Positions 1,665-62,794 of a stretch of DNA of 64,000 nucleotides are shown here, piece after piece; the first letter of the stretch is position 1, and each line of letters begins with the position of its first letter. The stretch lies in IMG/VR virus record IMGVR_UViG_3300023297_000003, one strand, 5' to 3'. The position numbers were made by a program, and so were the translations under genes. Below the pieces are notes generated by a model. That model was not told the origin of the DNA and searched no databases. It saw only the letters and a program-made list of their open reading frames with translations. This stretch comes from a virus (taxonomy: Duplodnaviria > Heunggongvirae > Uroviricota > Caudoviricetes).

Positions 1665-2651
1665 CTACTGTGCCCCTGAGCAGACGGAGAGTACCCCAGC
1701 ACAGAGGCTTGTCCAGGGACTTAAGGCCCCACTCAACTGAAGCCGCTGTGCCTCTGCGAGACTTCCGATCAGGGCCACCAAATCCTTGGCTGACCACCTC
1801 CGAAGTGGGGGCAACAATTTGTTTTTTAGAACCCACTGATTCATCCCAGTCATGCCACTAATCTCATCAGGGGATTTTCCAGCATCCCGAAGGAGAACGT
1901 AGTTCAACCACCGAACTACGATCTTCCCAAGCTGTACCGCCACGGAGATCGTAGGGTCACCCGAACCGGACTGACGGAGCCGCCTGAGAACGTTGGCGAC
2001 CTGTAGTGGGTCACGAGCCAGGACCGTATCCGCTAACACCGTGACGTCAGTCAGGGTGAGAGGGGCCATACTCTGCTTCACCAAACTGGCCGTGATGTCC
2101 GTAACCCCCTCAGCCTCGGCCAAAGTCGAGACCTTCAGGATCTCGAATGAGAGGAAGCCTAGATCCTGACCCAGTCGGGCAACGATGGCCTCGGCCAGAT
2201 CCTCCGGGAGAGTCATCCCCCGATCCTTGGCCTCCTGCCGCACGAACCTCTGAGCAGCCTCTGCCTTCTGGTATGCCTTGGCGGGGATGGGGTAGGATTG
2301 GACGGCCCGTTTCCCTAGCCCCTGGAGGAACTTAGCGAACTTCGTAGTGGCCTTAGGATCCTTCGGGTAGTCCAACAACAGGACCACGTTAGGGTCCCCC
2401 CGTTTGGCATGACCTTCCAGGACAGACAACTTCACCTTCTCAGGGTTGGACACGATCACTAGGGTCCGTGACACCTCCAGGAAGCACCCAGCAGACCCTA
2501 CGGCGATCTCCACTACTTTTGATTCAGATCCGTCAATATAATCCAGAGACCATCCAGCTTTCCGCTGAACGTCTATTGCCTTCAGAAGGGCTCTCCGTTG
2601 GATGAAAACTTCCGCCCCTGTAATGGCCACTACGGTGGGATTCTTCGCCAT
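1665..2651 (-). CDS. holA: DNA polymerase III delta-like clamp-loader subunit
   Basis: N-term ITGAEVF, GxDLxxLxxExxK motif (LGQDLGFLSFEILKV), size and C-terminal helical domain. Confidence 0.75.
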   Translation of the reverse strand: MAKNPTVVAITGAEVFIQRRALLKAIDVQRKAGWSLDYIDGSESKVVEIAVGSAGCFLEVSRTLVIVSNPEKVKLSVLEGHAKRGDPNVVLLLDYPKDPKATTKFAKFLQGLGKRAVQSYPIPAKAYQKAEAAQRFVRQEAKDRGMTLPEDLAEAIVARLGQDLGFLSFEILKVSTLAEAEGVTDITASLVKQSMAPLTLTDVTVLADTVLARDPLQVANVLRRLRQSGSGDPTISVAVQLGKIVVRWLNYVLLRDAGKSPDEISGMTGMNQWVLKNKLLPPLRRWSAKDLVALIGSLAEAQRLQLSGALSPWTSLCAGVLSVCSGAQ

Positions 2652-3286
2652 CAGAAACCTGCAAACGCAGTCACAACCTCTAGGAAGGTTGGATCTCGTT
2701 TCATCGTCACCATTCTAACCCGGTCCCAAAGTGCCCTGCTGCGCTCGTTATCCAGTTGATCACTCAGGCACTCTGCAACCACTTGGAGGAACACCCCAAC
2801 AGGTGCCTTTTTGCCCCCTATAATCCGAAGACCATCGATTGCAGTCGCCTGGTCCCCCTTAACTGCCGCATGCACCACGGACCAAGCTGCGGAGGAGATG
2901 TTATCATCTATCACGTCCGGCTCTTTGTTGGGTGCCCAGCGATCCAGACAACGGGAGCGGATGGTTCCGGGCACCTCCCCCAGGTCATTGGCCCATAGAA
3001 GGGGTGTGACGTAACCACTACCACCCTCTTCTACGGTCTTGAGGAGGGCGTCCGAAGACTTGAGTGTCGCCGTTCCATCCATAGGCCCGACAACCACAAC
3101 CGCCCTGCGGGTACCCAACGGGGTGGACTGGAGAAGAGACACGACCTCCCGAGCTTCCGCCACCTTCAGACCCCGTCCCTCATCACCTACAGGCGGGACC
3201 AGCAAATAACCGATCCGGGCTGCCTCACCACAGGCTGCCATCTTTGCCCCAGGACCATGAAAGAGAAGACATGAAGACACGGACAC
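2651..3286 (-). CDS. holB: DNA polymerase III delta-prime-like clamp-loader subunit
   Basis: LLFHGPG, ALLKTVEE, TIRSRC (SRC arginine finger). Confidence 0.75.
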   Translation of the reverse strand: MSVSSCLLFHGPGAKMAACGEAARIGYLLVPPVGDEGRGLKVAEAREVVSLLQSTPLGTRRAVVVVGPMDGTATLKSSDALLKTVEEGGSGYVTPLLWANDLGEVPGTIRSRCLDRWAPNKEPDVIDDNISSAAWSVVHAAVKGDQATAIDGLRIIGGKKAPVGVFLQVVAECLSDQLDNERSRALWDRVRMVTMKRDPTFLEVVTAFAGF

Positions 3287-3330
3287 CTCCCATCATCCTG
3301 TACTACTCGCAGAGGGGTGAGGAAGTCCCG

Positions 3331-3543
3331 TCAGGTGGTGATTTGAAAGACACCTTTACAAGTGAGACAGCGGTACCGGGTGAATGTCCCACCCTGCTCC
3401 GCATTGAAGGACCCAATGGAAATAGCTCCTACAGGACGGTTGGTCCTGCTGGAAATGATCTCAGCCTGGTTGCCTGGACACTTCTCATTCGCCCTACAGG
3501 AGATCCACACCGTCTTCTTGGGTTCTGTCTGTTTATCAATCAT
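3331..3543 (-). CDS. Small Zn-ribbon protein
   Basis: CRANEKC and CLTC pairs; RBS. Confidence 0.6.
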   Translation of the reverse strand: MIDKQTEPKKTVWISCRANEKCPGNQAEIISSRTNRPVGAISIGSFNAEQGGTFTRYRCLTCKGVFQITT

Positions 3544-4046
3544 TAGTCTACCTCCGGGTACTGCAACCGTTGATGTCCATCGATCCATGCGAGTTGGGGA
3601 TCCACAACCGGGTAGGCTGAGTCCCCACTCAGGGCCAGAGGGCCTCTTAGGATCGGTTCCCCAATCAGGGAAGCCAGGAACTCAGCGTCTAAAACGGACA
3701 CCTCAGTAGGATTGACCTGTTCCCTCAAGAGAGCAGCCCAAGCCCGTACCAAGGTCTCCCAGTCAGCCACGTCCCCCTTCTTGAACTGTACCCAAAGTTC
3801 GTCACCATCTCCCTGCATTAGTGGAACAACGGCATACTGCCACATGTCCCAACTCACCTTGAAGGGGAAGAACCGATCAGCACCTTCCCCAACAGGAGGA
3901 TTGACGTTCCTGCTAATCACCACCCACTCAGAGGGATGTGCCCTCGTAGACGTAGGGAAATCCACTACCGCTTTGTTGGCTTGGATGTAGGCACACCCCA
4001 AACCGATGAGCAGTAGATCCTGTTCTCCAAGATAGGTGGTCGTCAT
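3543..4046 (-). CDS. Hypothetical protein
   Basis: ORF with GGAGG RBS, coupled to the next gene. Confidence 0.6.
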   Translation of the reverse strand: MTTTYLGEQDLLLIGLGCAYIQANKAVVDFPTSTRAHPSEWVVISRNVNPPVGEGADRFFPFKVSWDMWQYAVVPLMQGDGDELWVQFKKGDVADWETLVRAWAALLREQVNPTEVSVLDAEFLASLIGEPILRGPLALSGDSAYPVVDPQLAWIDGHQRLQYPEVD

Positions 4047-4777: not shown

Positions 4778-5872
4778 TCAGGAAAGTCCCAAGGTGCTGA
4801 TGTACCTGGAGGCCACTCTTTTGATCTGTTCCTGGTTGTTTGCAGCGGCACGTGGGCGTGGACGGTCGGGTCGAGGTGACAGGAGGGAATCCATGTCTAC
4901 ACCTCTGAGGGAAGAAGCATCCCAGTAGATTCCGTAATCGCTGGCCTTCTCCTCCATCATAGTAAGCAGGCGGGGCTTGGACTTGAGCGCTTGGAGGAAC
5001 TTCTTCCACCGGGGCTTCCAGTGCCGCTGATGGAAAGGTGAGGGCCTTATGCCTGCCTTCTCCGCTACCTCCTTCTGGGTCGGGTAACGGTGTTGACCTT
5101 CCACAATGCTGAGCCACTGAAGCATAGGGGGACTGTCGTGCCAAGCAGCCCGCATCAGATCCCTGACCTTAGAACCCACCGGATCGTGGGTGTGGCGGAA
5201 CACCACCTCTGCCAGGAACTCCCCAAACTCGTCCGGGTCATAACTAAGAAGGTTGGGGTCTTCTGCGGGGTCAGCCTCACCGAACTCGATGGGGTTCCCT
5301 TCCTCGTCCACAGGGTACGGGACATCCCGCTGCTTCCGTTCCTCTACGTCTACCTTGTTCCCAAAGTACTTACAGAGCATCCCTATTCCAATGCTGACGG
5401 GGGTTTCCTGACCGTCCAGGATCCGTTTCTTGAGCTTTTGGCCCACCATGTAGGCGGGACGTTTGATCGATCCAAGGTTGGCTCCGAGGCCCATGAGGTT
5501 GCTCGTGATGACGTCTAGGGGATCGATCCACCGGAGCTTGTAGCTGTTGATAAGTTTTGCCACACAACGGAAGACCGTGGTGTACATCCCAGTGTTGCCA
5601 GGGGAAAACCATCCTGCAGGGATCTGATGACCCTTGTCCTCGAAGTAGCTCTGGGCGTGCTGAAGCTGACCCCTCGGCCTCGGCTTCTCCATCCAGGTAC
5701 CCACGGGGACGCCTGCGACACCCTCCAGTACCTGGAGGCGCAACATTATGTCGAAGTCTCGTTCGACGCCGCCCTTGACCCAGCGGGTTGCCAAACGTCG
5801 TGCCGGAGGCTCCGTGTCCGCTATCTTCCCACTCAGGCTTTTCAGCAGTTCCGCTCTGATTTCGATGCTCAT
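4778..5872 (-). CDS. Hypothetical protein with HTH-like segment and RVASRY module
   Basis: TQKEVAEKAGI; C-term KRVASRYI; GGAGG RBS. Confidence 0.7.
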   Translation of the reverse strand: MSIEIRAELLKSLSGKIADTEPPARRLATRWVKGGVERDFDIMLRLQVLEGVAGVPVGTWMEKPRPRGQLQHAQSYFEDKGHQIPAGWFSPGNTGMYTTVFRCVAKLINSYKLRWIDPLDVITSNLMGLGANLGSIKRPAYMVGQKLKKRILDGQETPVSIGIGMLCKYFGNKVDVEERKQRDVPYPVDEEGNPIEFGEADPAEDPNLLSYDPDEFGEFLAEVVFRHTHDPVGSKVRDLMRAAWHDSPPMLQWLSIVEGQHRYPTQKEVAEKAGIRPSPFHQRHWKPRWKKFLQALKSKPRLLTMMEEKASDYGIYWDASSLRGVDMDSLLSPRPDRPRPRAAANNQEQIKRVASRYISTLGLS

Positions 5873-6115
5873 CCGTAACCCTCCATCACAACCGTCATCA
5901 CAGTCTAAGTATAAGCATATCACCGTCCAGCACTTTCGTCCCAAAACATCAGAGAAAAACCTGGATGTTTTCCCTTGACAGGTTCTGTGGGCGGGGTAAG
6001 GTCCCTGGTGATCGAGGTGGACCTTGCTCCCGTTTCGAGCCCTGTCTACGCCCCGATCAAAGCTAAACCGAGGTGACTACACCCTACCAGGGCTGTCACC
6101 CAAGGAGGCCCTTCC

Positions 6116-7204
6116 ATGACAATTGCTCTCCCCAGTTTCAGTGACTTCAGAAACCCTGTATTGACCGTGTTGGGAACCCTCACCGACAATCAGCCTGGTG
6201 TGTTCGTCCCCCTCACAGATAAGCTCTTCCTGATGGTTTATCGGGCGGCAGGGTTCAACCCGAAGAGGCTCTCCCTGTGTGGGAAGCCTGAGGATGGCTG
6301 GCGCATTGAGGGCATCAGCGGTCCTCCGGGGTTTCGGCGCAAGGTTTCCATCGCCTACCAGGATCTACACACCCGAGTTAAGGTCCCCCTGACCGTGAAG
6401 GGTATCCGAGGCCAATGGGCACTCACCCCCGAGGGGGTAACACAGAATCAGGTCCTGGAGGAAGCGTCCAGGGGCAAGCCCAACGAAACTGCCCTGTTCA
6501 TCGACCGGAGACTGAAGGAAACTAAAGGGGACTTCCTCCGCCTGCTCCATAGGTCCGTCGCCTCCAAGATGCTTGTGTCTGCTACTTCAGGGATGGTTGA
6601 GGATCATGTCCAGAATTGTATGGTCCGACTGATCCACAGGAACGCTCTGAAGAGCCGCATCATGATGGGCCTCCCGATCCCCGATTACCATATCGTCCAG
6701 TGGGCCGTCAGAGCCGCATACACGGACGCCCGGAACGATGGAACAGAACCTGTGGCACGGGAGATGTACGGTGCCCGCACGGATACGGAAAGGGCACGGG
6801 CCAAATTGAACCCCTCTCTTATCGTTACGACATCACACAGGGATCCCCGGATTCTGTGGGGAGGGGAAGACAGCGACGGAGCCTGGACGGATATTCGTGA
6901 CGACAGCACCACCGCTACCAGCGACGCTGTGGACGACAACCTGTTGTTCCAGGGCATCTGGGACAGGGTTGAATCCGTAATGCAGTCGAAGACCCCGGAG
7001 GGATCCCGTTACCTGGAACTGTTGGGGAGGAAGGCAACGGGGTTCTCCATCCAGGAATTGGCGGACGTCGAGGGGATACCCACCAAACGGATGAAGGCAC
7101 TTCTGAACAAGGCCAAGCGGACGGCGAGAGCGTCCTGGGAGACTGTTCAGGCACAGATTCTGGAGACTGCTGAAATGTCCGAGGGGCGTCCTGTCGGGGT
7201 GTGA
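6116..7204 (+). CDS. Mrr_N-like winged helix fused to a sigma-70 region 2/4-like domain (putative sigma factor or regulator)
   Basis: FSDFRNPVL...RGQWALTPEG; VEDHVQ; GFSIQELADVEGIPTKRMKALLNKAK; upstream TTGACA promoter. Confidence 0.55.
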   Translation: MTIALPSFSDFRNPVLTVLGTLTDNQPGVFVPLTDKLFLMVYRAAGFNPKRLSLCGKPEDGWRIEGISGPPGFRRKVSIAYQDLHTRVKVPLTVKGIRGQWALTPEGVTQNQVLEEASRGKPNETALFIDRRLKETKGDFLRLLHRSVASKMLVSATSGMVEDHVQNCMVRLIHRNALKSRIMMGLPIPDYHIVQWAVRAAYTDARNDGTEPVAREMYGARTDTERARAKLNPSLIVTTSHRDPRILWGGEDSDGAWTDIRDDSTTATSDAVDDNLLFQGIWDRVESVMQSKTPEGSRYLELLGRKATGFSIQELADVEGIPTKRMKALLNKAKRTARASWETVQAQILETAEMSEGRPVGV

Positions 7205-7272
7205 GGGCCGAAGGGGTCCCCGGGTGTAGGCCCCTCCCCGTCGCAGCGGTTCTCAGGGCCACGTAGCCCCTC

Positions 7273-7563
7273 CTAGCGGTGATCCTTCTCTACCCACTTG
7301 TCAACGGTTTCCCCGTCCAGGGTCAGGGACTTGATGCAATCCTCACCATCCCCGTCGATTCCCCCGATCATTAAACTCTCGTCCTTCAGGGTGCAGGAGT
7401 GGCCTACGCCGCCGCACCACTGGAGGTAACTCAGGATGTTGGTGATGCCTTTAGCCCCATTGCGGTTGCAGATGATCTGGATGACGGCTGCGTTCTCCAT
7501 GGTGTTGGGACACCCGTCTCCCGCTGCGAGCCATCGGGAGGCTATCCTCTGTGTGGCTGTCAC
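7273..7563 (-). CDS. Hypothetical protein (RIASRWL module)
   Basis: Coupled ORF; shared N-terminal motif. Confidence 0.6.
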   Translation of the reverse strand: MTATQRIASRWLAAGDGCPNTMENAAVIQIICNRNGAKGITNILSYLQWCGGVGHSCTLKDESLMIGGIDGDGEDCIKSLTLDGETVDKWVEKDHR

Positions 7564-7880
7564 AGCATCCTCAGCATCGCCCTGAAGGGGCGGACGACCT
7601 CGTAGAGACGGTCGAGGGTGGAGCCAATGAACTGCTTCTCTTGTTCCAACTGCTGGGTGGCACCCTCGATCTCATCCAGGAGAACCTCGAAATCAGCGGG
7701 GTCGTCATTCATCGTGGTAGAAGCCAACCGCCTTACATTGTCAGCAAGGTCCGACCAGAGACGTGCGTTCTTTTCACGTTCCTTGGCTCCCCGTTGCATG
7801 GCGATTCCGAGCCTTTCCACGGATTGGTAATCACCCTGGGACAGATACCGCAGAGCCAGCTTCCTCGTTGTGTCGCTCAT
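7560..7880 (-). CDS. Hypothetical coiled-coil protein (KLALRYL module)
   Basis: Start MSDTTRK directly after stop of the upstream gene. Confidence 0.6.
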   Translation of the reverse strand: MSDTTRKLALRYLSQGDYQSVERLGIAMQRGAKEREKNARLWSDLADNVRRLASTTMNDDPADFEVLLDEIEGATQQLEQEKQFIGSTLDRLYEVVRPFRAMLRML

Positions 7881-7881
7881 G

Positions 7882-10800
7882 TCATTCACTCCAAGCCAGC
7901 CATCCGTCCACAGTGTCAGGTGCCCCCGATGCAGACTTCCGGTCGGGGTCAGGGTAACTGGAGTGTAGCAGCCGGGAATACACGCAGTCGCCTTCCTGGG
8001 CGTGCCTGTCCAGGAAGGCCGTGACATTGGTGTGCCTGTCCGACCGGCGGCTGTGAAGGTCCGAGACGAGGTGTCCGGCGACGTCCCGCACATCGGTGCA
8101 GGCGCTGAGTCCGAGGCGGGCGGTTTTGGCCAGGTGACCGTACAGGCCGTACTTCCGCTTGGCCGTCTTCCCATCCTCGGGGGGGTCCTCGGGTTCATCG
8201 CTGGCGATCTTCGGCCCGATGTTTCCGAGAGCTGCCACCAGGATCTTGGCCGAGAGGCTGTCCGCCTTCTTGGCGTGGGTTACGAGAAACGGGGCGACCC
8301 GCTCATCTTTGGCGTAAACCCTCCTCGCTACCTTCTCCGCTTGCTTGGTCAGCTTACGGACACAACCCTCGCAGTCGGACTGGACGCCCTTGGTGAAGCC
8401 ATAGAGGCCCCCAGCGGCTGCACCTTTGATTTTGCCGTGCTCCCGTCCAATCCAGGCACACAGGGCGTTAGGATCCCTGATGTCTTTCCCGCACTCCTTC
8501 TGGTATGCCACGCAGTTGTCGAAGGCTTCACCCTTCCCACCCTTGAAGTCGCCCTTGTCGTCCTTGTACTTCTCACCGCAGGTACCCAGGCGGGTCCAGG
8601 TGATGTCCGCACCCTTAACACGGACTGAACCGTCAGGTTGCACGGATGATGACTTCCAGTCATTGATCTGGATCTGACCATCAGGGTATCCTTCCAAGGG
8701 ATTGTCCGAGGCTGCCTTCCCGTCCAGTTCGTCCACTTTGCCGTGGTATTTGTCCCAGAGGGCCTTATCCTCCTTGGACATGTTCTCGGTGGGGTCAGCG
8801 GGCTTCCCTTCCTCGAACCGGGCGACCTGCTCGTCCGATGCGTCCTTCCCCTCCAGTTCGTCCACCTTGCCGTGGTACTTTTCCCATTTCTTCTTATCCT
8901 CAGGGGACATGTTCTCAGTAGGGTCGGCGGACTCGCCCTCTTCGAACCGGGCGAGTTGTTCGTCTGCCCGGATGCCCCGTTGTGCGTACTCCCGAATGAT
9001 CCTTTTGTCCTGCCAGAAGGCTACTATGTCGTTGTCGTTGAACTGGTCCAGGATCGCCCCCCCATAGATGGCTCCATGCGGTCCCACCTGCTCATTGGGC
9101 TCACCCGGTTCAAGGGACTCGTTATGCTTCTTCACGAAACGAGCGATGTTGTTGCGAGTGGGCTTTCCGTAGGACCGTGAGTCCCAGATGCTGTTGCTTT
9201 GGCTGTACCTTCGGGTGACGGGGTACACCTTCAGCACGTACCGTGGGGTGGAGTCCCGACCGGCTTGGTGGCCTGTGGGAGCGGGGTCAGTAGACCAGAA
9301 AGAAACCGGCTGTGCCCCGGATCCAACCACCCAGCGCCCGTTGAAAATGTAAAGGTCGCAACCCTTCTGACCCGGTCCCCAGTCACCACACATGTAGAAA
9401 CCGTGGCCATATTCAGGTTTATGTTCGAGGGCTTCCAGCGCCCGGAGATTGCGGACACCCTTGGCCCGCATCAGGTCACGTAGGGACTTGTACTTGACGC
9501 CACCGTCACCGTACTTGACGTCGTTGTCCGTGAAACCACTGAACTTGAAGAAGTCTAGGTGCCCCCCTCGTCCCTCTTCAACCCCATAGATGTGCCCCAC
9601 TTTCATCTGGGAAACTCTGACGAGGGAGTCCAGTACGTACTCCTTGCCGTAGAACTTGGGAAGGGCCTCCGGCTCGTTCCATCTACCAGCCCGGCGACTG
9701 TTCTTGATCATCTTGTTCAGTTCAGCCTTGATCTCCTTGGCTTTGGGGCCTCGCCAGGAGGAGGCATTGGTGAGGAAGTAGGCCACGATCTGACGGGCTG
9801 AATCCGCCCCGAAGCTGTCGGTGATGTCGTCCAGGCGGAACATGGCGTCCAGGTGGGGCTTGGCAGCGTAGTTCACGGGCTTCCAGTCCCTGCGGATGTC
9901 CACGGCGATCTCGTGGATGGGACGGACGCCAGCGGTGATGGTTTTGCCCCACTTGGACTCCAGGATTGTTTCTCCTGTGGCGGTTAGACCTCTGGCCACA
10001 TTGTCAGGAAGGCTTGCGATGAAGTTATCATCCCAAGTGTCAGGGACAAGACGCAGCCTTGTCAGATCGATGATATGGTTGGGACTGATCTTCCGACCCA
10101 CATTGTCATGGATCCAGTCCTTCAGGTCATTCCTGTCCGTGGTCCTGAGTTTGATGTCAGAAGTCGTCTTGCGAGGGTCACCCAACGTAACCAGGAACCC
10201 ACCGCCAGAGTCCCTGGAGATCACGTACATCCATTGTGTTACCTGTTTCTTTACCCCTTGACCTGAGGCGGCGATGTCCATGACGACCGTGGGTTCATCC
10301 CCGGCTCCAGGCAACTCAGAGCTTGGCTCCTCGTTGGGGATGACCGTGACGGGGCCACCGAGCCTCGTCATAGAGGACGTTTTGCCCTTGGGTTCAGGCT
10401 TCCTCTTGATCTCGGGCTCGGGGGTCTTCTCCACTACGGTGTGCTCCACCGAATGCATCTGAGGATCAGCATCAGGGTGCTTCCTGAGGTATTCCCGCCT
10501 GGACGTCTCGTCGGGGAACACCGTGGCCTGCTTGAACTGGTCCTTGTGCTTGATGCGTTCCTCGTCCCACTTCTTCTTGTCCGCCTCGGACATGTTTTTG
10601 GTGGGGTCGGCAGGCTCACCTTTTTCGAACATGCCCTCACGTTCATCGTGGGCGTCACCGGGGAGCAGGGAGGTAGACTCCCCAACCGGGTTCGTGTCCC
10701 CGGTGATCTCCGTGTCGTCTTTGAGGTTGACGTTGATCAGGGATTGCATCGAGGCCAGTCTAGTGACATCCTTCTGGGACGCCGCTCTCAGGTGCTCCAA

Positions 10801-20254: not shown

Positions 20255-20270
20255 CTGGTGTTCTTTCTAT

Positions 20271-20665: not shown

Positions 20666-20692
20666 GGATCATCTCAGGTTCCCCCAGAGTAG
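20666..20692 (+). promoter_or_regulatory. Phage promoter GATCAT-N14-GAGTAG
   Basis: Exact motif. Confidence 0.7.
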
Positions 20693-20714
20693 ACCTTGTG
20701 AAAGGAGGACTGGG

Positions 20715-21514: not shown

Positions 21515-21521
21515 CCTTTGT

Positions 21522-21548
21522 GGATCATTTCTGGTCCCATCCGAGTAG
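21522..21548 (+). promoter_or_regulatory. Phage promoter GATCAT-N14-GAGTAG
   Basis: Exact motif. Confidence 0.7.
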
Positions 21549-21681
21549 ACAGTGTGTGAACCGTTGTCCCGGAAGGGATGGCCTGACGTGCCCGTATCCC
21601 GAACTGGTCAAGACACGCAGGTCAAAAGAGGGTGGACAATATGGTTAGTCAGAATGAACACATTCTGGCCTTAGCGACCTT

Positions 21682-22761
21682 TCAGGTCGTGCAGGACCGG
21701 GGGACCATAGACTCCCCGACGGCCCGAGCAAGGATGTTCACGCTGCCAACAAAGTCGGCATCGGCGGCGTACCCACACCGCACGCACACGAACTTCTCAT
21801 TCACTCGGTTGGATCTAGCCCGATGAGTACAGGAAGGACATATCTGCGAGGTGTACGCTGGATTTACTTCCACCCGTCGAACACGGTTCAGACGGGCTTT
21901 CCATTCAATCCGGCGCAGCACGTAGGCGTATGTCCAGGGGGCCAGAGCCCTGCGAAAACTCTTACCTCGATTGGGTTTCTTTCCCTTCTTGAGGTTTGTC
22001 AATTTTTCGACGGCCACCAACTGCAACTTATCCCAAGGCAGTTGATTCAACGTCTCATCAATGTATTGATCCCGAGCCCGTCGAGCACGGAACTTGCCCT
22101 TAGAACCGTTCTTACATCGGCAAACACGTCGCACATACTTAGACATATCAGCGCCGTAGATCTTCCCATCGGAAGTGGCGATAAGCTTGTTCAATCCGAC
22201 ATCAATGCCCAAGACAGTTCCTTGCTCCTTGAGGGCAAGGTCCGGAAGCTCCACCCAGAGGGTTACGAAGTAGACCCCTGCTCGACATCCGATAGCACAT
22301 CCACCCTTCAGTTTCGCCCCCGGCATAATCAACAGCTTTCTGAGGTGTCTGGTGGCCTTGAGAGGTACATTGATACAGTGCCTTCTGGAGAGAGTCGAGA
22401 AACGCATCCACAAATCGAACTCACTCGTCTCGGTGGCTTCTGTTATGGCAGCAAGCTGCTTAGACAAAACCATTGCCCCAGAAAACGCAGGACAGGTGGC
22501 CAGATTCCCCGTTTGGGCAGCGCTTCTTCGTGTGGCCGCTACAATGCCGAGCGCCTGTTGGAGCGCATGCCCCCTCATCCGAAACGTCAGGTGACCAAGA
22601 GGAACGACGTCAGCGGTTGCTTTGTTAAGGCTACCGCCATAACTCCAGATGTGCTGAATATAGGCGTTGACGGTAGCACGGTAGCGGTCAAGAACGGCCA
22701 CGATCTTCGCCACTTTCGAGACGCTGGCAAACTTCAACGAGAGCTTGGTTGACGCAATCAT
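21682..22761 (-). CDS. tnpB: RNA-guided endonuclease TnpB
   Basis: GIDVGL, VEKL, PAYTSQICPSC, CVRC, DADFVGSVNI; start MIASTK after TTGACA-N17-TATACT. Confidence 0.93.
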   Translation of the reverse strand: MIASTKLSLKFASVSKVAKIVAVLDRYRATVNAYIQHIWSYGGSLNKATADVVPLGHLTFRMRGHALQQALGIVAATRRSAAQTGNLATCPAFSGAMVLSKQLAAITEATETSEFDLWMRFSTLSRRHCINVPLKATRHLRKLLIMPGAKLKGGCAIGCRAGVYFVTLWVELPDLALKEQGTVLGIDVGLNKLIATSDGKIYGADMSKYVRRVCRCKNGSKGKFRARRARDQYIDETLNQLPWDKLQLVAVEKLTNLKKGKKPNRGKSFRRALAPWTYAYVLRRIEWKARLNRVRRVEVNPAYTSQICPSCTHRARSNRVNEKFVCVRCGYAADADFVGSVNILARAVGESMVPRSCTT

Positions 22762-22986
22762 GGATAGAGTATATGCCGAAGAAATTGGTCTGTCAATTTT
22801 TGACGGGGAATTAAAAAAGAGGGTCAGGTTATGTCCATAAGGACCGGAAATGAAGGAACCTTTGCAACGCCGCAAGGCATGTTGGTGTCTCATACTCAAA
22901 GGCACAACACTAGTGGGTACTACTCGACGCCCAAACCCCTCGGATACGGTTGGAAGCCCGAACGGTTCACACTGATGGAGGTTCCA

Positions 22987-23201
22987 TGGCGAAACCAACG
23001 AAGAGGCAACGGGAACTGCGGGAAGCCGCTGACCGTTTCGATGCGTGGTTTGGCACGGGGACCGAAGGCTCCCGGTCATGTCGCCGGGGTGCCCGCCGGA
23101 TCGATGCAAGGAAGCGTGCCCAGTTCCACCACACGAGAGGAACATGGCGGGACGCAGTGAGAGCTTCACAGGAGGGATCATCTCCGTCCCCGTCCGAGTA
23201 G
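22987..23201 (+). CDS. Small basic hypothetical protein
   Basis: GGAGG RBS, MAKPTKRQREL. Confidence 0.5.
23175..23201 (+). promoter_or_regulatory. Phage promoter GATCAT-N14-GAGTAG
   Basis: Exact motif upstream of ncRNA/tmRNA block. Confidence 0.7.
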
Positions 23202-23254
23202 ACAGTGTGAGCCGTAACCCCGGAAAGGATGACATGACGAGGTGACTGTGTTAT

Positions 23255-23383
23255 GGGAAGGGTGGTCTAGTAGCCGAGTGGCTCCCGAGTAGCGCACTCA
23301 GGGGTTGCGGAGCAGGCAAGGACACTCGTTGGGGACCGGACAACCCTGCAGAGAGGTCGGTGGTTCAAATCCATCCCCTTCCC
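23255..23383 (+). ncRNA. tRNA-like RNA with expanded D loop and anticodon arm
   Basis: GGAAGGG/CCCTTCC acceptor, GGTGG-TTCAAAT-CCATC T arm, G-1:C73. Confidence 0.7.
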
Positions 23384-23395
23384 CTAGTGTTTGTT

Positions 23396-23847
23396 CTTTG
23401 AAGCATCGAACGGGAGTATTGACCGGAGTCCGACATAGCGCCGAAAGGAGCCGTGTGGGGTACTTGACAGCACCCGATTTACTTACTAAAGTTTAACTAT
23501 TCCTGCTTGAAACAGGAAGCTGTTGTGGCAGGGAGGCTCACGCTGATTGGGTGGGAGGTTCTGGTGTGCCCAGATGTTCTGGGGGTGAACACATTGGTAC
23601 TAACGATCACCCACGAGGCGTAAAACGAGTGCTGAGAGAGCGATTCCGTCTTCGACGGACCAGTTCCTTGGGATTCGGACGGCAAGAGCAACCGTCATCC
23701 GAGCCTTTACCGTTGGGCCGGAGGCTTACTACCGAGGCACTTGGGTTACCAAGGATCGGCACAGCTTCAAACTTGATGCCTGTTACATTAGCAGGTTTTA
23801 AGGAACGGTGAGGAAGTCAGTCGATATTCCCGTTCGGTGCTTCAGAG
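23396..23847 (+). ncRNA. Large (~450 nt) structured RNA, unassigned
   Basis: 28-bp terminal helix with 4 G-U wobbles; many internal hairpins. Confidence 0.7.
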
Positions 23848-23862
23848 TGTTCTTTGACTTTT

Positions 23863-24237
23863 GGGGGCGCACTGGTTTCGACTGGGAAGTTGGAAGCCGT
23901 TACTGCGTGCCAGCGGATGTCTCAAACCGCTGTGATCAAATGGGGCGACTTTTAATTGCCAACACTCCTGTTGCAATGGCTGCGTAAAAACCCCAGCCCG
24001 GAAGACCTGGAAAGATTGTGACCCGGACCCTTCCGCCGATTATTCGATCTGCTGCCTGAAGACCTGACCCACAGGGCTGAGGGAGACAAGACAAACGTGG
24101 GATGCCTAATGGACACTTCTGGCAAGGGTGATGTCCTGACTGGCGAGAGGGGGTGACCCCAAACACTCCGGCCAACGCATGTGTAGATGTAGCGAGTGAC
24201 CCTTCTCAGGACTTCGGTTCAATTCCGAACGCCTCCA
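23863..24237 (+). ncRNA. ssrA: tmRNA
   Basis: GGGGGCG..GGTTTCGAC 5' end, tag ANTPVAMAA* (23958-23987), T arm and CGCCTCCA 3' end. Confidence 0.95.
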
Positions 24238-24282
24238 CTAAGTACCTGATTTCATTGGCTTTTTTGCGCTGTAGGGGTCAAC

Positions 24283-24699
24283 ATGTCAAATCCGAGAGTG
24301 TTCCTGGGTGGCACCTGTGCCAAGGGCACATCGTGGCGGGAGAAACTGATCCCGCAGTTAATGATCCCCTACTTCAACCCGGTGAATCCCCATTGGGACG
24401 AGGCGGCTCGGCTCCGGGAGTTGGAGGAACGTGAGACCTGCGCCTTTTGCCTCTACGTCATCACGCCGAAGATGCAGGGGTTCTACTCCATCGCTGAGGT
24501 GGCAGACGATTCCAACAAGCGCCCGGAAAAGACGATCTTCTGCTTCCTCCCTGAGGACGGTGACGAGACCTTCACGAGGAAGCAGTTGTACTCGCTGAAG
24601 GAAGTCGGCAAGCTGGTCGCCAGGAACGGGGGCATCTGGGTCGAGTCCCTGGAGGCTGTTGCCGCAGTCCTGAACGGCACGAAGACGGATAGTAGCTGA
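24283..24699 (+). CDS. Nucleoside 2-deoxyribosyltransferase-like protein
   Basis: VFLGGT..WR..FNP..YSIAE motifs. Confidence 0.75.
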   Translation: MSNPRVFLGGTCAKGTSWREKLIPQLMIPYFNPVNPHWDEAARLRELEERETCAFCLYVITPKMQGFYSIAEVADDSNKRPEKTIFCFLPEDGDETFTRKQLYSLKEVGKLVARNGGIWVESLEAVAAVLNGTKTDSS

Positions 24700-45290: not shown

Positions 45291-45334
45291 TCTCCTTGTC
45301 TGTCCACCTCAGATGTTGAGGGGCTCACCCAGGT

Positions 45335-45361
45335 CTACTCCGGGAACAAAGGAGATGATCG
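45335..45361 (-). promoter_or_regulatory. Phage promoter GATCAT-N14-GAGTAG
   Basis: Exact motif. Confidence 0.7.
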
Positions 45362-53371: not shown

Positions 53372-53394
53372 GGCAAGGTCCTCCCTACAGTCGT

Positions 53395-53421
53395 CTACTC
53401 AAAGGAGGGCACTGATGATCA
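53395..53421 (-). promoter_or_regulatory. Phage promoter GATCAT-N14-GAGTAG
   Basis: Exact motif. Confidence 0.7.
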
Positions 53422-61661: not shown

Positions 61662-61779
61662 CAACTGCCTCCGACTACCCGGCACACAATAGACATTACA
61701 GGTTGTGTTCCATGTGATCAAACGAACACCTCTAATTCGAGAGCTGATGCAAAACATCTGCTCCCCCGTTCACATTGGT

Positions 61780-61806
61780 CTACTCGGCAGTCTCTCCTGA
61801 TGATCA
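61780..61806 (-). promoter_or_regulatory. Phage promoter GATCAT-N14-GAGTAG
   Basis: Exact motif. Confidence 0.7.
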
Positions 61807-62727: not shown

Positions 62728-62794
62728 ATACTAAGTAAAACTGACTATCAAAGAACCCGTGAATCCGTCCAGGGCTGTCCCTATCATACCTGTA

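Follow-up and report, generated by a model that had tools for sequence, protein, structure and literature searches.

The feature at positions 23396-23847, which a preliminary description had taken for one unassigned structured RNA of about 450 nt beside a tmRNA gene, is very likely two features, one nested in the other. Its interior (23457-23809) would be an ORF-less TnpB element of the IS607 type that carries an omega RNA, made of the left end and the omega-RNA-coding right end of such a transposon, and the sequences on either side of it (23396-23456 and 23810-23847) would be the two halves of a phage hairpin. The window, by which we mean the whole 64,000-nt stretch that was analysed, comes from a tRNA-rich huge phage found in salt-lake metagenomes and holds 31 tRNA genes and a tmRNA gene; one of its proteins, P0001, is carried by 23 contigs, the longest of 528,282 bp. 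The feature sits between a long tRNA-like gene and the tmRNA gene, all three on the plus strand, in the following arrangement.

21682-23235, minus strand: second TnpB-like gene (PF07282, E 3e-17), just upstream of the feature
23255-23383, plus strand: long tRNA-like gene
23392-23401, plus strand: 10-nt direct repeat TGTTCTTTGA, copy 1, exact, overlapping the start of the stem
23396-23423, plus strand: 5' arm of the stem (inverted repeat I1), phage flank outside the mobile element
23424-23456, plus strand: upper hairpin with GAAA loop, left flank of the insertion, from the fold of the joined flanks
23456-23459, plus strand: TGGG, TAM-like motif with a GG core at the left boundary (WGGG common to left ends)
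23457-23520, plus strand: left-end module, with 88-98% identity to its counterparts in L033, L032, L034 and L025
23464-23492, plus strand: sigma70-like promoter TTGACA-17-TAAAGT, inside the left-end module
23502-23520, plus strand: left-end hairpin (TTCCTG/CAGGAA)
23524-23809, plus strand: omega RNA scaffold and right end, corresponding to the 3' ~285 nt of tnpB, with 75-90% identity to ten loci and a covarying structure
23810-23829, plus strand: predicted omega RNA guide segment, the flank right after the scaffold, partly in the 3' stem arm
23820-23847, plus strand: 3' arm of the stem (inverted repeat I1), phage flank
23848-23857, plus strand: 10-nt direct repeat TGTTCTTTGA, copy 2, exact, 5 nt ahead of the tmRNA gene
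23863-24240, plus strand: tmRNA gene (Rfam match)

When Logan contigs from four salt-lake DNA runs were aligned onto 23150-24300, the summed depth over the interior (23457-23809) was about 10-99x, made up of many short contigs of 80-99% likeness, against 2-5x over the flanks. Contig ends hung loose at 23457, 23520 and 23783/23809, and the contigs departing at 23520 continue into ATGAAGTGTCGC..., which translates as MKCR..., the start of a TnpB. The excess of depth together with the loose ends indicates that the core is common to many DNAs with differing flanks and that the terminal helix is not shared by them. The preliminary description had proposed a homologue search, and a metagenome scan with a conserved 20-mer picked from the contig alignment returned 12 loci, ten of which are true homologues, 75-90% identical over 23457-23809 or its 3' part. 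The same 20-mer gave one real match in a genome scan, L036, which is identical to L027 and labelled a Proteobacteria MAG. The remaining matches of the two scans (L035 and L026 in metagenomes, L037 and L038 in genomes) were rejected as chance matches inside coding DNA. Exact-pattern scans with 22-25-mers of the core had no match in the viral collection or in genomes, and blastn ('distant') against phage GenBank records had none either. As to the genes around the feature, loci matching the deoxyribosyltransferase-like neighbour are 51-62% identical, not syntenic and in no case accompanied by a tmRNA, the chaperonin neighbour has no viral match, and the Ro60-like neighbour has one relative, G001, which possesses a tmRNA but no similar RNA beside it and shows no DNA match to the window.

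The homologues reveal what the interior derives from. In six of the ten loci (L032, L024, L028, L029, L030, L031) the 3' 285 nt form the terminal part of a TnpB gene. In L032 a tnpB ORF keeps the initial 64 nt of the core (8593-8657) apart from the final ~285 nt (9822-10108), beginning 12 nt past the left module and ending within 11 nt of the end of the 3' module. Complete TnpB copies (n=3) are 472-476 aa long, with 480 and 484 aa for the stop-to-stop frames as scanned, and the ORFs of L032, L024 and L028 match the Pfam families PF07282 (Cas12f1-like TNB, E 1e-12 to 1e-14) and PF01385 (OrfB_IS605). The motifs GVDVGLN, VVEDLDL, NPAYTSQECPSCG and AHADWVG can be read in these proteins, giving a RuvC-like D-E-D set and a zinc ribbon (CPSCG...CRSCG). 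Directly upstream of tnpB in L028 lies an ORF for a serine-recombinase TnpA (PF00239 Resolvase, E 2.1e-22), and this Resolvase-domain gene assigns the family to the IS607 type; a linked TnpA is present in this one full copy only, L032 and L024 being without it.

The window itself keeps a trace of the protein. The preliminary description had seen no credible ORF, which holds for a whole gene but overlooks an 86-aa frame at 23551-23811 that shares 76% identity with the L032 TnpB over its residues 394-476 (E 1e-38) and reads as a recognisable C-terminal remnant of tnpB. One common internal deletion junction (...CAGGAAG joined to CTGTT...) is found in the window, L033, L034 and L025, whose flanks are unrelated, and the presence of one junction in four unrelated contexts implies that the element spread after the deletion. 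L027 (the same as L036) is a second, more diverged ORF-less form. ORF-less PATE-like elements 'often encode omega RNAs' that need TnpB in trans (Meers et al. 2023, PMC10055086). Judged by its sequence, the segment 23457-23809 is such an ORF-less, PATE-like element of the IS607 family carrying an omega RNA. Thus a feature that had been left without a family is placed in a known one by homology to TnpB elements, and not by Rfam.

Among the full copies, L024 (reverse orientation) has an ORF of ~51 aa (MKISIKIHVD...) between the left end and tnpB with, by eye, a ribbon-helix-helix look; it recalls the Arc-like ORFs known in TnpB elements (doi 10.1101/2023.11.20.567912). A family A DNA polymerase gene interrupted by a LAGLIDADG intein (5842-8217, minus strand) neighbours L024, and L032 has an RtcB RNA ligase beside a DNA methylase (2404-3582, plus strand), so that the neighbours of both loci look phage-like.

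Comparison of the copies also defines where the element begins and ends. WGGG, that is TGGG or AGGG, is present at all seven of the seven left ends, and all copies share the right end ...GGAACGGT (RNA ...ACGGU), after which they diverge completely. In the IS607 element of C. botulinum both TnpA and TnpB use a 5'-TGGG-3' target or TAM with a strict GG, the omega RNA scaffold ends in ...UCGG, and there are neither inverted repeats nor a target duplication (doi 10.1101/2023.11.20.567912). The left WGGG and the right ...GGAACGGT appear to agree well with these published boundaries. None of the copies of our element shows a target-site duplication or terminal inverted repeats of its own, all flanks being unrelated, and the 28-bp repeat of the window falls outside the conserved element.

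Within the left-end module, TTGACA-17-TAAAGT is the sole promoter-like site in 23100-23950, and both hexamers, with their 17-nt spacing, are kept in the diverged copies L024 and L027. At the other end, the predicted guide (23810-23829), whose length of ~20 nt is taken over from the ISFba1 TnpB (PMC11061315), matches nothing in the window except its own site, with up to 3 mismatches allowed. Part of it would be paired within the 28-bp stem and might therefore be less easily used.

In order to examine the structure of the 3' module, we ran RNAalifold on an alignment of nine sequences (A2). The consensus fold has 86 pairs, 17 of them with compensatory changes, and pairing is retained in 98.2% of cells, the window copy included, in which every omega RNA helix is intact. 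Double changes fell on 17 pairs and 33 cells, compared to 7.4 and 10.6 in shuffles, and none of 500 shuffles was as good; these figures lean in favour of the structure, since fold and counts come from one alignment of related sequences. Controls with slid partners gave 0-7 pairs with double changes. Helices 5, 9, 13 and 14 show clear double substitutions, and several G-U pairs are invariant on the plus strand. Set against the contig variants, the minimum free energy fold is compatible with 13 changes and incompatible with 9. The preliminary description had suspected selection at the RNA level on the plus strand, and the covariation and the invariant G-U pairs of the 3' module bear this out; the covarying fold is what one would expect of an omega RNA on the sense strand of tnpB, and the phage RNA operon runs on that strand too. 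The individual hairpins that had been named fared unevenly. TCCGTC/GACGGA is helix 8 of the consensus and covaries, TTCCTG/CAGGAA is conserved without covariation, and GGGTGA/TCACCC finds no support: the copies do not share GGGTGA, and the consensus fold gives TCACCC another partner, an upstream GGGT.

A cmscan of 23380-23870 (491 bases) on both strands against all 4227 Rfam families returned nothing up to E 10, in agreement with the earlier failure to match the feature to GOLLD, ROOL or RNase P. With the whole window at gathering thresholds and 3.7 kb at E<=10, Rfam reported the tmRNA and tRNAs only. RNase P had also been considered by eye and was rejected: GAGGAAGUC-like and GGCUUAC-like strings are present in the wrong order, P4 would have only ~4 bp, and the covariance models give no match.

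The helix that had been described as closing the RNA is real. Its arms, read directly, form a 28-nt inverted repeat that is 86% complementary, where none is expected by chance, and the four positions that are not Watson-Crick pairs are all U-G or G-U on the plus strand and would be A-C if read on the minus strand. The helix nevertheless belongs to the flanking phage sequence and not to the RNA with which it had been grouped, as the stem arms or complementary flanks are absent from every other copy of the element. The flanks fold independently of what lies between them: when joined (23396-23456 plus 23810-23847) they form one continuous hairpin of ~100 nt, in which a lower stem of 28 bp is followed by an upper stem with interruptions and a GAAA (GNRA) loop. 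Four different placements of the boundary gave energies between -60 and -62 kcal/mol, and the z-score is -8.8. The whole feature folds at -203.3 kcal/mol on the plus strand (z -7.3) and at -159.3 kcal/mol on the minus strand (z -5.4), and the interior alone has a z-score of -3.4 (against mononucleotide shuffles); the flanks supply much of the feature's strong z-score.

The arms do not recur within the 64 kb. Exact-pattern scans gave no match to the stem arms in the viral and metagenome collections or to the hairpin apex in the viral collection, and the composite of hairpin and insert was not found to be conserved in any collection scanned. An 'empty' hairpin allele was likewise absent among the joints of the four salt-lake DNA runs and from the exact-pattern scans (viral, metagenome). 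On the simplest account the phage hairpin was there first and the mini element probably entered its upper 3' strand at a TGGG. A 28-bp duplex would be a substrate for RNase III, which makes it plausible that the hairpin is a processing site between the tRNA-like RNA and tmRNA. The uninterrupted ~100-nt hairpin may be a small RNA or a processing site of the phage operon.

The surroundings of the feature contain further repeated signals. A bipartite motif occurs in six copies with exact spacing in the window, where none is expected by chance, and its strand is always that of the local tRNA or gene block.

20667-20694, 21523-21550 and 23176-23203, plus strand: GATCAT-N14-GAGTAGAC
45333-45360, 53393-53420 and 61778-61805, minus strand: GATCAT-N14-GAGTAGAC

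This motif is a candidate phage-specific promoter or leader, and the copy at 23176-23203 could launch a plus-strand transcript across the tRNA-like gene, the feature and tmRNA. Two direct repeats of ~85 nt (21516-21600 and 23169-23250), both containing GATCAT-N14-GAGTAGAC, bracket the minus-strand TnpB gene, whose annotated start overlaps the right repeat, so that its true start may lie further in. This gene, 21682-23235, is the sole TnpB gene in the window and its product is only 30% identical to the TnpB family of the mini element; it belongs to another lineage. Two TnpB-type elements stand at most 250 nt apart in the phage RNA operon.

GTTCTTTGA-like strings were also seen a few bases 5' of RNA genes, namely the hairpin (23392-23401, plus strand), tmRNA (23848-23857, plus strand), the Y-RNA-like array (62748-62757, minus strand) and the tRNA mimic (~20258-20268, plus strand). 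The strings ahead of the array and of the tRNA mimic are near-copies of TGTTCTTTGA, GGTTCTTTGA with one mismatch and GTTCTTTC, respectively. As near-copies precede other RNA genes, a spacer motif is likelier than a target-site duplication, and the GTTCTTTGA-like strings may be a spacer or processing motif. The handle motif of the phage's Y-RNA-like RNAs is absent from the feature when checked by eye.

An element without a gene would depend on a TnpB supplied from elsewhere. A search at E<=1e-30 gave the TnpB family 488 relatives. P0124, a TnpB that is 89% identical to that of L032, has a tail 74% identical to the window's remnant. P0124 is found on 22 contigs, and the longest of them has the same length, 528,282 bp, as the longest contig carrying P0001. 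Solely from these equal lengths, a cognate full-length TnpB is probably encoded elsewhere in the same 528-kb phage. Other members of the family occur on contigs of 220-620 kb. In L029 and P0124 the tnpB frame runs past the right boundary (...FQQVLRNG...) into the flank, which means that the last residues of the protein are set by the insertion site.

We propose that one internal deletion brought the final ~285 nt of tnpB directly behind the 64-nt left end, which carries a sigma70-like promoter of its own. Either this promoter or read-through from the phage RNA operon would then yield a predicted omega RNA of ~300 nt, with a scaffold ending in ...ACGGU and, as its 3' guide, the adjoining flank from 23810 on. 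A cognate TnpB acting in trans could load this RNA and cut 'empty' sites, in which WGGG is followed by a match to the guide, and recombination would restore the element at the cut site, which is the known homing function. The serine-recombinase TnpA, also in trans, could move the element. On this proposal the flanks would be the two halves of the phage hairpin into which the element inserted at TGGG.

Other explanations have to be weighed against the nested arrangement. The interior could be a decaying tnpB pseudogene with neither RNA function nor mobility, its structural signal inherited from its ancestor. The ORF is deleted, and the copy is only 10-25% diverged from the others, which would have left little time for decay; yet we consider a dead remnant unlikely, given that the identical deletion junction recurs in four unrelated contexts, that both ends and the promoter hexamers are intact and that 98% of the predicted pairs are kept, the window copy included. 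It is conceivable, too, that stem and omega RNA are kept as one functional, domesticated operon RNA of ~450 nt and are no selfish insertion; RNase III, for example, could release this RNA at the 28-bp stem, and a TnpB of the phage could then employ it against the host or rival phages. A location on the plus strand of the RNA operon between the tRNA-like gene and tmRNA, four stem deviations that are all G-U on that strand, the retention of every omega RNA helix and the presence of the TnpB family on many contigs of 220-620 kb would all suit such a chimera. We nonetheless hold it to be quite improbable, because the stem is missing from every other copy and the flanks differ everywhere, the guide matches within the window its own flank only, G001 has a tmRNA with nothing similar alongside, and no collection scanned shows the composite conserved. 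Just as doubtful is a co-opted orphan omega RNA, made as a processed RNA and held in an RNase III-type stem of the operon with its guide masked until cleavage, which a TnpB encoded elsewhere in the 528-kb genome would turn, as a weapon or drive, on co-infecting relatives without the insertion; if this were true, the feature would be a regulated, operon-borne guide RNA instead of a passive mini transposon.

The 28-bp arms invite yet another explanation, in which they are the terminal inverted repeats (TIRs) of a second, DNA-level miniature transposon with a TGTTCTTTGA duplication and the TnpB mini element is nested inside it. The arms are indeed near-perfect inverted repeats, and an exact 10-nt direct repeat at 23392 and 23848 adjoins them. 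However, the left TGTTCTTTGA overlaps the arm by 6 nt, and the geometry is therefore not that of repeat-TIR...TIR-repeat. As near-copies of the repeat (GGTTCTTTGA, GTTCTTTC) precede the Y-RNA-like array and the tRNA mimic, the arms recur neither in the 64 kb nor in the collections scanned, the upper stem runs on to a GNRA loop and the four mismatches are all G-U on one strand, we regard a second transposon as very unlikely. There is practically no chance that the feature is a group I or II self-splicing intron or one of the other large RNAs already described (RNase P, GOLLD, ROOL). Variable, coding-looking flanks of the core in other contigs, an insert of ~1.2 kb between two conserved modules in one copy and a GUGUG at 23453-23457 could be taken to point to an intron, but the insert proves to be the tnpB gene, whose coding end makes up the 3' module, and the boundaries WGGG and ...CGGT are not splice-site signatures. 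These assignments are refuted by the lack of any Rfam match on either strand at E<=10, by the Pfam TnpB matches and by the 76% identity of the remnant to the TnpB tail.

With an ORF-less TnpB element inside a phage hairpin as the preferred reading, an apparent new large phage RNA is removed: it resolves into a TnpB mini element with a guide RNA, selfish DNA of a known kind, and an unrelated hairpin. Our data document an IS607-type TnpB family (472-476 aa) with an unusually long, almost wholly ORF-embedded omega scaffold of ~285 nt that lacks an Rfam match, and alignment A2 could seed a covariance model for it. The family circulates in salt-lake metagenome contigs with phage-like neighbours, its proteins are also found on contigs of 220-620 kb, and gene-less copies have spread, each bearing its own predicted promoter.

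GOLLD and ROOL resemble the feature in being large, structured RNAs of phage DNA that adjoin tRNA-type genes. The feature differs from them in that it matches no Rfam model and that its structured part is a transposon guide RNA of protein-coding origin. In ISDra2 the guide RNA of TnpB, its reRNA, is drawn from the 3' part of tnpB together with the right end, the flanking DNA serving as guide, and the layout here is the same. ISDra2 is, however, an IS200/IS605 element with a Y1 transposase, hairpin ends and a TTGAT TAM, unlike the window element, similarity between the two having been compared via Rfam alone.

The closest agreement in type is with the IS607 TnpB elements CboIStron (doi 10.1101/2023.11.20.567912) and ISFba1 (PMC11061315). 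A serine TnpA lies next to tnpB (in one full copy here), the left boundary is WGGG with GG at both ends, the scaffold ends in ...CGG(U), no target is duplicated, and tnpB and the omega RNA overlap at the 3' end of the gene. In contrast to them, the TnpB of the window family is longer (472-476 aa in complete copies, compared to an average of 390), and its scaffold of ~285 nt lies almost wholly inside the ORF and is accompanied by no group I intron. The ISFba1 TnpB has a RAGATH-18 reRNA (PMC11061315), whereas the omega RNA of the window matched no Rfam model at E<=10, including any TnpB-associated motif, such as RAGATH-18, that Rfam may contain. With the PATE-like elements (Meers et al. 2023, PMC10055086) the window element shares the lack of a protein gene, the retention of both ends of a TnpB element, an omega RNA that would need TnpB in trans, and copies in several contexts. 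It differs from those elements in being of the IS607 (serine recombinase) type and in residing in a huge phage, inside a hairpin of the RNA operon, with use in trans and mobility as predictions for the element described here.
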